A stretch of 64,000 nt of DNA from Candidatus Thermosaccharophagus tengchongensis. GTDB taxonomy: Bacteria > Armatimonadota > Fervidibacteria > Fervidibacterales > Thermosaccharophagaceae. Below are positions 54,001 through 57,000 of the stretch, one piece after another. How positions within the stretch are numbered: position 1 is the first letter of the stretch; every line of letters starts with the position of its first letter. The stretch lies in assembly GCA_032161105.1 (NCBI GenBank), contig JAVHTD010000001.1; one strand, given 5' to 3'. A program made the position numbers.

Positions 54001-57000
54001 CACACAAAAATTTGGATTCGTAACATCATCACCATGTTTAGCAACAGTGAAATCCAAATTTAAAAACATCAACATGATTCTGTCAACAGCTATTTTAATC
54101 CGGATTTTGGGGTTGACAATCACCACGAATTTGGCTATAATTAAACATGAAGCCGGATGTGCTGATGGTAGGCAGAATTGCCATAGTGCATCCTACACCA
54201 TCACATGGAAAGGGGGTGCTAACATGGCGAAGAAGGCAGCACCAAAGAAGAAGGCAGCGCCGAAGAAGAAGAAGTAGCAATTAAAGCCGTAATTGGGGGG
54301 CAGTTGGCACTTGCCTGTGCCACTGCCCCCTTAACATTTTACCGGCTCTTTTGCGAAATTCTCCCAAATACTTTTCACTGATATTTAGCAACCCTCGCCT
54401 CCAGATTGACCAAAAGGCTTTTGGTGGGTTGGTGGAGAGGGTAATTGAATTTCCCCCTGTAACTCGCCCGCTAAAGGCGTGGCGGTTTCCCTGACTTCAC
54501 CCAACCTTTCAAGCACTTCTTGGGCGAGTTGGCGATACGCTGCTGCTGCCACATTGCGGCTGTCGTAGTAGATAATTGGCAAGCCATGACTTGGAGCTTC
54601 GCTTAAGCGCACCGTCCTGGGTATGATGGTTCGCAAGACCCAATGCTGGAAGTGCTTTTCAACTTCCTCAGAAACCTGTGAGGCGAGGTTGGTGCGCGTG
54701 TCATACATTGTGCGGAGTATACCGAGCACAAGCACCGACGGATTCAAACTCATGCGAACCTTCCGTATCGTGCTCAGGAGATTTCCCAAACCCTCAAGCG
54801 CGTAATATTCACACTGAATTGGGATGAGGATGTAATGTGCGGCGGTGAGACAGTTGACCGTGAGCAAACCCAACGATGGTGGCGAGTCAAGGATGATGAA
54901 ATCGTAGTTAATGACGAGCGGTTGCAGCGCCCGATGTATCATGAATTCCCTTTCTTCAAGTTGGCTCAGCTCAATCTCAGCTCCAGCCAAGTCAATGTCA
55001 GACGGTATGATATCAAGCCGCGCAAAACGAGTATGCTTGACAGCTGCCCCGGGTTCGACGAAACCGGCAAGCACATCATAAAGTTGCGGGCGTGCGGCTT
55101 GCCTCGGGATGCCGATACCGGAAGTGGCGTTGCCTTGTGGGTCTGCGTCTACGAGTAAGACGCGTTTGCCAATCTCAGCCAAGCATGCACTTAGGTTTAT
55201 TGCCGTCGTCGTTTTCCCTACGCCGCCCTTTTGGTTGACGATTGAAATGACTATCCCCACAACAGCTGCCTACCCCGCTTTCACTGTGCGCAGTGACTTT
55301 CACAACGCACGCTGTTTGCAATATGACATTTTATCCCTCTCCACACTTCATGTCACCAGCGCGCATAATTGCAACATGCAATTCACATTAGAGGTGCAGG
55401 GGCAGGAAAGATGGGTGAGGGCAATCGCTGGTCTCATCTTCTCACGAGCTTGAAGGATGTGCTTCACAAGGGCTTTCATGCCGTGCTCAGGTTGCTTTAT
55501 CCGCCACGCTGTCTTGTGTGCGGTTCGCTATCCGAGGAGGTGCTTTGCAGGGGATGTTTTGCGCAACTCAAATTTATCAAACCGCCGATGTGCGACCTCT
55601 GCGGAAAGCCATATGACGAGCTTGCTCACGCTGCGCCCATATGTTCCGATTGCAGGAACACAAAGCGATGGTTTGACCGATGCAGATGCGCTGTCAGGTA
55701 TGAGGGTGTCGCACGGGAGATGATCCACAAGTTCAAGTATGGCGGCGAGAGGCGGCTTGCATCGGAGATGGCGAGGCTTATGGTTGAGATTCTGAACGAC
55801 TTCCCGCTCCAGATTGAGTTAGTGATCCCAGTGCCGTTGCACAGCAAGAGGCTGCGAGAGAGGGGATTTAATCAATCGGAGTTGATTGCGGAGCTGTTAT
55901 CAGAACGGGTTAATGTGCCGATGAACTCATCCTTATTGATTCGCATAAGGGAAACAAAGCCCCAGTTTGACCTTGAGCCGAGGGAGAGGTTAAACAATGT
56001 GCGAGGCGCATTTGAGCTCGTTGAAGCGAGTGCTGTGACTGGCAAGGTTGTCCTCATCGTTGATGATGTAATGACTGTCGGGGCGACATTGAATGAATGT
56101 GCGAGAGCGCTCAGGAAAGGAAAACCAAGAGCAGTGTATGCAGCTGCGTTTGCGAGGGCAGTCGGAATGTGAATTGCATACCTGTTGCATGGCGATCCAA
56201 GTTGAGGAAGCCACTTCCCCGGGGGCTGCTCACGCAAGCTGCAATCGGTGTGGACTTATAAACCGTAGGCAATTCATGTTGGGCATATGTGTTGCAGCTA
56301 CGAAGTTAATTCGGGCTGGCTATACGGGTTGAGGCTTTGTGAGTTTGGTGCGATCCAATTGGTTGGAGGCGATAAATGATGGCTGTGCGCATCGGCTTTA
56401 TAGGTTCAGGTGGGATAGCCCGTTTGCACATGCAGAACCTGAGCAGGATTGAAGATGTTGAGTTGGTTGCGTTTTGCGATGTCGCAATTGAGCGTGCAGT
56501 GGAGTGCGCAAACCAGTATGGTGGTAGAGCATACGACAACCATGCCGAGATGTTTGAGAAGGAAGAGCTTGATGCAGTTTACATTTGCATTCCTCCGGGA
56601 GCGCATTCCGACCAAGAGGTTATGGCTGCTCAAGCGGGCGTGCACATATTCGTTGAGAAGCCGATAGCGCTAACACTTGATGCTGCCGAGAGGGCGCTCA
56701 ATGCGATCAAGAGCGCCGGCGTGATAAACTCCGTCGGATACCACTTTCGCTACCTTGACACCACTGACATCGTCAGAGAGAGGTTAGCTGAGCAAACTGT
56801 GGGCATGGTCTTGGGCTATTGGATGGGCGGCTTACCGGGAACACCTTGGTGGAGGCGCATGGAACAATCTGGTGGGCAGATTGTGGAACAGACGACGCAC
56901 ATATTTGACCTTGCAAGATACATTGTGGGCGAGATAACACATGTGTGCGCTGCAGCTGCCCTCCGTGCATTGCACGATGTGCCGAATCTCAATGTGCCTG

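Follow-up and report, generated by a model that had tools for sequence, protein, structure and literature searches.

A minigene for a short lysine/alanine peptide of H1-tail-like composition, carried by two families of one bacterial order

Here we report a previously unannotated minigene for a 17-aa lysine/alanine peptide in a 64,000-nt stretch of the genome of Candidatus Thermosaccharophagus tengchongensis (contig JAVHTD010000001.1; this whole stretch is the window to which positions refer). Judged from its sequence and relatives, it is a true gene under selection. An earlier note on this DNA had proposed a stand-alone microprotein gene, and that proposal is borne out by a locus that is real, selected, provided with strong-expression signals and H1-tail-like in composition. 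The minigene ranges more widely than first described and is not soj-linked, and by analogy its product most likely works like an H1-type tail or a polyamine. The gene is independent of its neighbours, its expression signals are conserved, and it is under purifying selection.

The coding sequence lies at 54224..54277 on the plus strand, where the missed Lys/Ala ORF had been placed, and encodes MAKKAAPKKKAAPKKKK* in 17 codons followed by TAG, with two 18-nt repeat units and nine lysines, all AAG. The peptide has a mass of 1.85 kDa, or 1.72 kDa without its Met. It is a stand-alone, single-copy ORF on contig C1, in frame in all four genomes of its own genus, and among the 62,400 ATG-started candidates of 10-60 codons in the genome its lysine fraction of 0.53 is the maximum, the next value being 0.38. 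Longer N-terminal readings (from TTG 53906, 123 aa) were rejected, as they are not conserved in orthologues and the ribosome site indicates ATG 54224. An Arg-rich 45-aa ORF that overlaps the gene in the +1 frame (54147-54284, plus strand) and whose ATG coincides with the predicted transcription start (54147) was also rejected, because it is stopped early in two of three orthologues and open in one.

Upstream of the gene is a sigma70-type promoter, TTGACA-N17-TATAAT (54113..54141, plus strand; TTGACA 54113-54118, TATAAT 54136-54141), with a transcription start predicted near 54147-54148. Its description as perfect was correct: it is the sole 12-of-12 site among 14 promoter-like sites in 50000-58000, and one of two perfect 17-nt-spacer promoters genome-wide (eight shuffles gave 0-1), the second preceding a gene that, from its translated start, we take to be EF-Tu-type. 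A tRNA-like gene has a -10 context near-identical to that of the peptide gene. TTGACA and TATA(A/C)T are conserved in 4/4 own-genus genomes; the N17 spacer previously ascribed to the orthologues is not kept in the 15-aa one, which has 16 nt.

The 5' leader holds a hairpin (54155..54193, plus strand; fold z -1.6, not significant alone) that probably stabilises the mRNA; orthologue leaders form a hairpin at the same position from different sequences. A Shine-Dalgarno site follows at 54212..54218 (plus strand), 5 nt ahead of the ATG. The site is there as the earlier note had said, but it reads GGGGGTG in this genome and not AGGAGG, and a GG(A/G)GGTG ribosome site is present in 21/21 orthologues. 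Downstream lies a GC-rich, terminator-like hairpin (54295-54330, within 54295..54340, plus strand; z -5.4 on the plus and -5.8 on the minus strand), which may also serve the convergent soj gene. The GC-rich terminator claimed for this locus is a strong hairpin, T-rich-tailed in three orthologues, but its U-tail here is weak, and for this reason the terminator scan did not list it. In all 21 orthologues the downstream hairpin has z <= -3.1.

Ahead of the promoter is an AT-rich region (53700..54110, plus strand; GC 0.37 vs 0.52 for the contig), and the corresponding 415 bases have a GC of 0.35-0.39 in all four own-genus genomes. It is probably a regulatory or UP region. Within it, a distal TCACAC footprint (53749..53754, plus strand) and a proximal footprint (54000..54027, plus strand) made of TCACAC and TTCGTAACATC are invariant in the four genomes, both words in the latter case, and the proximal one is a candidate regulator site. 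Such invariant footprints suggest a regulator, so even a perfect promoter may be controlled. An origin of replication was considered for this region and rejected: the window contains seven one-mismatch DnaA boxes against 10.9 expected, there is no box with at most one mismatch in 52900-54400, and none is perfect or clustered in the AT-rich region, which also folds no better than shuffles (z -0.17).

Other features of the window may be recorded here. About 750 bases (52940-53700) with no convincing ORF separate the AT-rich region from a 191-aa gene (52364-52939) that neither Pfam nor NCBIfam matched; much of this interval has no counterpart in the other three own-genus genomes. Three genes (45485-46216, 51475-52239 and 57384-58211) presumably carry an N-terminal prepilin-type cleavage motif common in the phylum. 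We take the genes at 46876-49486 (minus strand) to resemble Pup ligase/deamidase and a proteasome subunit, and the 908-aa ORF at 58634-61360 (minus strand) to be a fusion of a cation-exchanger-like membrane part with a metallo-beta-lactamase RNase-like part.

In-frame orthologues of 15-22 aa occur in 21 of the 24 genomes of the order, comprising 4/4 of the own genus, 17/18 of the sister genus and 0/2 of a third. The taxonomy given in the accessible part of PMC11535203 is in line with two families and three genera in the order, as is an earlier family label. In the own genus the gene sits at the soj locus in 4/4 genomes with lengths of 15, 17, 20 and 22 aa, which confirms the 15-, 22- and 20-aa orthologues reported there. 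Its convergent neighbour in the window, outside the unit, is the soj/parA ATPase gene (54385..55260, minus strand; Pfam AAA_31, E 1e-63).

The earlier note had seen no clear match in the sister family, Fervidibacteraceae; 17 genomes of its large genus nevertheless carry the gene elsewhere, 15 recognised by pattern searches and two more starting MPKK, and the sole genome without it is 61% complete and likewise yielded no sign of the usual neighbour. In that genus the unit is flanked by a convergent metallo-beta-lactamase-fold gene and, upstream, by a variable gene that is xylose-isomerase-like or lactate-racemase-like; promoter (TTGA(T/C)T...TGTTATAA), leader hairpin, ribosome site (GGGGGTG) and terminator are all its own. 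None of 13 sister-genus soj loci carries the peptide gene. Because the unit occupies a different locus in the sister family, soj is an incidental neighbour; a functional tie to soj was rejected on these grounds, and the picture of a genus-restricted gene tied to soj/parA gives way to one of two families, different loci, and look-alikes in many phyla and phages.

Leader sequences are unlike between the two genera. In the sister genus the hairpin shows compensatory changes at 6 of 13 pairs (15 sequences), and its top (L065:1432-1500 and 14 other leaders) carries a nearly invariant GGGGGT that matches the core of the ribosome site exactly. The C-rich strand of this hairpin is able to pair with either of two G runs; the element may serve as a standby site, bind a protein or act as a temperature switch.

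Substitutions in the gene indicate that purifying selection acts on the peptide. Over 13 equal-length orthologue pairs of at least 80% identity, which are not independent of one another, codon changes were 42 synonymous vs 15 non-synonymous, and base changes at codon positions 1, 2 and 3 were 12, 12 and 48, placing 48 of 72 at the third. Metagenome loci were retrieved with a pattern that fixed only the leader, the ribosome site and the first codons, with no stop codon in it; 24/24 end in frame at 16-27 residues, several of them duplicating order genomes already counted. The 404 residues of the 21 orthologues are drawn from K, A, G, T, P, Q, S and M alone, with 190 Lys and no Arg, while the genome's long ORFs have 7.1% Arg and 4.4% Lys. 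Net charge is +8 to +11 in the 19 peptides computed, lengths differ by whole repeat units, and M1, A2 and three Lys columns alone are invariant in 15 aligned peptides. Composition, in the sense of charge and spacing, is conserved, whereas sequence and length are not; this pattern suits a polyelectrolyte, not a lock-and-key ligand.

An exact look-up of 10 peptides (20-23 aa) found none in about 15 billion proteins; orthologue peptides had no match in Pfam, NCBIfam or the PDB, the last tried by sequence and by profile; and Rfam matched neither the window locus nor 40 related loci, except for one neighbouring tRNA. We found no description of such a gene in the literature, although supplements and subscription journals may contain small-ORF catalogues that include members of the class, and such a peptide is absent from the accessible part of the main text of PMC5082802. 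Three raw metatranscriptome runs, in which the organism's presence is not demonstrated, gave 0 reads on 52300-55600. In a fourth RNA run, a 171-nt contig of another organism bears a ribosome site and a short Lys-rich look-alike, which is no proof of transcription.

Outside the order, the peptide pattern matched 4 of 377 genomes of the phylum; three of these are short Lys/Asp/Gly ORFs and one is not. The three (L031:1501-1557, L032:1515-1565 and L034:1501-1548) form a Lys/Asp/Gly variant of 15-18 aa that has both a ribosome site and a terminator and comes from two further families of the phylum; variants resembling this type also occur in Actinomycetota loci. The reversed pattern matched 0/401 genomes.

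A wider GTDB scan used a ribosome site followed by MA(K/Q)K ... KK-stop, with the ends fixed and the frame and middle free. Among the matches listed, 55 of 120 are ORFs of 12-23 aa with at least 40% Lys, so that at least 55 such loci exist, and 35 of the 80 titled matches listed are short Lys-rich loci. These 35 loci come from Alphaproteobacteria, Actinomycetota, Bdellovibrionales, Bacteriovoracaceae, Planctomycetota, Acidobacteriota, Rokubacteria, Eisenbacteria, Dormibacterota, Parachlamydia, Methanoperedens and others. The middles, unconstrained by the pattern, hold 264 Lys in 448 residues among the matches listed, and a downstream hairpin with z <= -2 is present in 24/36 look-alike ORFs. 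Versions of 39-129 aa were also found, into which the short look-alikes grade. Prevalence under strict patterns is low: 9/61 genomes in one alphaproteobacterial family, and 7/61 and 3/61 in two phyla. The seed genome and any match out of frame are part of each of these counts. Homology across phyla is not demonstrable for a sequence of this kind, and repeated origin is as likely.

Among these look-alikes, loci of Rokubacteria and Methylomirabilota (L138:601-733 and L157:480-658) have two or more Lys-rich minigenes in tandem, every one with its own ribosome site. At L147:283-663 a 20-aa Lys-rich minigene stands immediately ahead of a 100-aa basic protein that has no Pfam or NCBIfam match. One minigene, at L278 (G544:C69:8679-8758), has three internal cysteines and is a possible metal-binding or disulphide variant.

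Viral contigs also contain short Lys-rich ORFs, in 19/29 and 3/17 matches (22/46 together), which form 15 sequence clusters. A terminase lies within 1.5 kb at E <= 1e-8 in five clusters, two more reaching only about 1e-5, against 0/20 control clusters from a neutral gene-start pattern, one of which has portal and head genes; Fisher p for 5/15 vs 0/20 is 0.009, with 67 of 88 control ORFs scanned (mostly short ones omitted), 42 hand-picked test neighbours and many short test contigs. On contigs of at least 30 kb the comparison is 3/7 (one via an unscanned cluster member) vs 0/12. Three things bias this enrichment: short contigs were kept for their hallmark genes, scanning was uneven, and homology is unproven. 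At L200, L207, L222, L226, L228 and L284 the phage minigenes adjoin terminase or head-tail connector genes, that of L284 lying two genes ahead of the large terminase subunit. An acidic mirror pattern had 0 viral matches, its specificity not being matched to that of the Lys pattern.

Based on analogy with known lysine-rich tails, we suggest, with a probability of about one half, that the product is an abundant unfolded polycation that binds nucleic acid much as a polyamine does. The one-gene transcription unit of about 190 nt would yield a 16-residue peptide after Met removal, predicted to be unfolded, to carry a charge of +9 and to reach high copy number, with spaced KK pairs that would contact nucleic acid without sequence specificity. 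It may be viewed as one unit, set free, of the Lys/Ala/Pro/Thr repeats from which H1, chlamydial Hc2 and mycobacterial HupB/MDP1 build their long tails. A peptide of 16 residues would most likely serve as a counter-ion, polyamine-like but encoded by a gene: it would screen charge and stabilise DNA, and probably RNA, or bridge it loosely, perhaps together with the tailless HU, and would not be an architectural histone.

The promoter, which is in the class of EF-Tu and tRNA promoters, is consistent with the polycation reading. So are the selection on coding and composition, the HU without a tail, the gradation of look-alikes into longer proteins, and the phage look-alikes close to terminase genes. 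In the accessible part of PMC10810275, 10 tail residues already raise the DNA affinity of MDP1, while plasmid compaction in vitro is nearly lost with tails of 38 residues or fewer and 38-44 residues are required in cells. The minigene peptide is shorter than this, so compaction by a free 16-mer is doubtful, and a polyamine-like counter-ion, effective via abundance, is a more likely role than that of a histone. Against the polycation reading stand this short-tail result, the higher DNA affinity of Ku after removal of its PAKKA tail (accessible part of PMC3553676), and the finding of no NAP gene as a conserved neighbour of the peptide gene. The genome has a spermidine-synthase-family gene, so the peptide is not filling in for a missing polyamine route. 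Binding to DNA in vitro is common to all polycations, so the cellular partner cannot be named from composition alone.

A ribosome-bound basic peptide is a possible but rather unlikely alternative, in which the product would plug an rRNA pocket as an analogue of eL41, bTHX, bS22 or bL37 and stabilise the ribosome at high temperature. eL41 and bL37 are small basic ribosomal peptides, and the minigene products resemble them, as well as bTHX (PF17070) and bS22/mS38 (PF08213), in being very short, basic and encoded by small genes. Size and charge fit, the promoter class is that of EF-Tu and tRNA genes, the gene is near-universal and single-copy within two genera, and the Thx and bS22/COX24_C families were not found in the genome, so that such pockets could be free. 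Known small ribosomal peptides are, however, Arg-rich and fixed in length, whereas the minigene peptides have no Arg, range from 15 to 27 residues in steps of repeat units (two near-identical loci have 22 and 27) and keep few invariant columns. The gene also lies outside any ribosomal operon, PF17070 and PF08213 matched neither the orthologue peptides nor the genome, general Pfam and PDB scans of the peptides showed no likeness to eL41 or bL37, and the PDB has no match by sequence or profile.

That a structured small RNA is the main or second product, with the ORF secondary, seems improbable. The unit is discrete, with its own promoter and terminator, and the compensatory changes in its 5' hairpin and the invariant G-rich apical sequence of 15 sister-genus leaders would suit an RNA; yet the two families share the peptide type but not the leader sequence, substitutions track the codon frame, and the Rfam scan was silent save for the one tRNA. 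An antisense role towards soj is not indicated either, since the terminator ends about 45 bases short of the soj stop and does not overlap its CDS.

It is still harder to argue that translation itself is the function, whether as a lysine-sensing or poly-Lys-stalling leader controlling a neighbour or as a drain on charged tRNA-Lys. About half of the codons are Lys and the ribosome site is strong, but an attenuator leader has a co-directional regulated gene behind a switchable terminator, and here a strong hairpin follows directly and, in both families, a convergent gene comes next, leaving nothing to attenuate. AAG also dominates among the Lys codons of the orthologues (153 vs 37 AAA), and of 97 Lys-Lys pairs 2 are AAA-AAA, as expected under slippage avoidance.

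Some Lys-repeat proteins bind polyphosphate or storage granules, and charge alone would allow this here; we consider it very unlikely, as PPK1 (PF02503) was found in 0/24 genomes of the order and PPK2 (PF03976) was not found in this genome, control genomes being positive for both. An exported cationic antimicrobial or envelope-binding peptide, to which the small size and positive charge might point, is hardly credible for a product that lacks a leader and, over the 404 orthologue residues, any Leu, Ile, Val or aromatic side chain, and that has no transporter or modifying enzyme among its conserved neighbours.

A broader form of the polycation reading can be offered tentatively, at rather less than even odds. 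Bacteria of many phyla, some archaea and phages may have a minigene devoted to a ribosomally made polylysine peptide of 12-27 residues and transcribed from a strong promoter. The peptide would be abundant in the nucleoid or the RNA-rich cytoplasm and serve as a gene-encoded polyamine or minimal H1. It would have stayed invisible because gene callers drop the minigene and trypsin destroys the peptide, and in hot-spring bacteria it would be the missing tail of HU supplied in trans, aiding DNA stability at high temperature. Should its abundance match what the signals suggest, annotation and trypsin-based proteomes alike overlook a major polycation of many bacterial cells; if the reading is true, the peptide would mark how small an H1-like protein can be and connect such proteins with polyamines. 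Testing is cheap, as the peptide can be synthesised. A cultured hyperthermophile, apparently of the sister genus, has public RNA-seq (GSE249938) and proteomics according to the accessible part of PMC11535203, and if the layout of two families and three genera is true these data would allow first tests at once.

How the peptide compares with known systems differs from case to case, and the earlier label of histone-H1-like stands as a resemblance but fails the Hc2 and NCBIfam H1-like profiles. Linker histone H1 has a Lys/Ala/Pro/Thr make-up with Lys far over Arg. The C-terminal domain of the eukaryotic protein shares this make-up with the minigene peptide (accessible part of PMC10810275), but H1 also has a globular winged-helix domain, which is missing from the several times shorter peptide: 17 aa are too small for it, and the orthologues have no Pfam or PDB match. 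The SET domain PF00856 was not found in the genome (97% complete), and no SET-domain gene lies beside the minigene. Homology to H1 cannot be demonstrated for such a sequence.

Chlamydial Hc2 (HctB, PF07382) and the H1-like family NF038053 are closer in design, being free-standing, repeat-built, Lys-rich and variable in length with repeat number (accessible part of PMC2848022); the minigene likewise has short Lys-rich repeats whose number varies between strains. Hc2, however, has 165-237 aa vs 15-27 aa in the minigene peptides, which fall far below the approximately 165 residues or more of that family. PF07382 and NF038053 matched none of five 22-23-aa peptides (three from the order, two look-alikes), sequences too short to reach the cut-offs, and a genome-wide PF07382 search did not match the 54224-54277 locus. 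A 102-aa look-alike gave weak Hc2 and H1-like scores, far under both cut-offs (17 of 40 bits and 24 of 80 bits).

By the tests run, the peptide is not a member of the Hc2, H1 or HupB families. In HupB/MDP1 the tail is fused to an HU domain, whereas here the peptide ORF is on C1 and the single HU gene, for a protein of about 90 aa with no Lys-rich tail, is on C7. The tails of HupB/MDP1, Ku and actinobacterial TopA resemble the peptide in their low-complexity KK-spacer repeats of PAKK or AAKK type (accessible parts of PMC10810275 and PMC7398561), but run to about 70-100 residues or more and are fused to a folded DNA-binding domain, while the minigene peptide would be one unit set free. The MDP1 tail is itself made of 17-19-aa PAKK repeats (accessible part of PMC10810275), and one such repeat is about as long as the whole minigene peptide.
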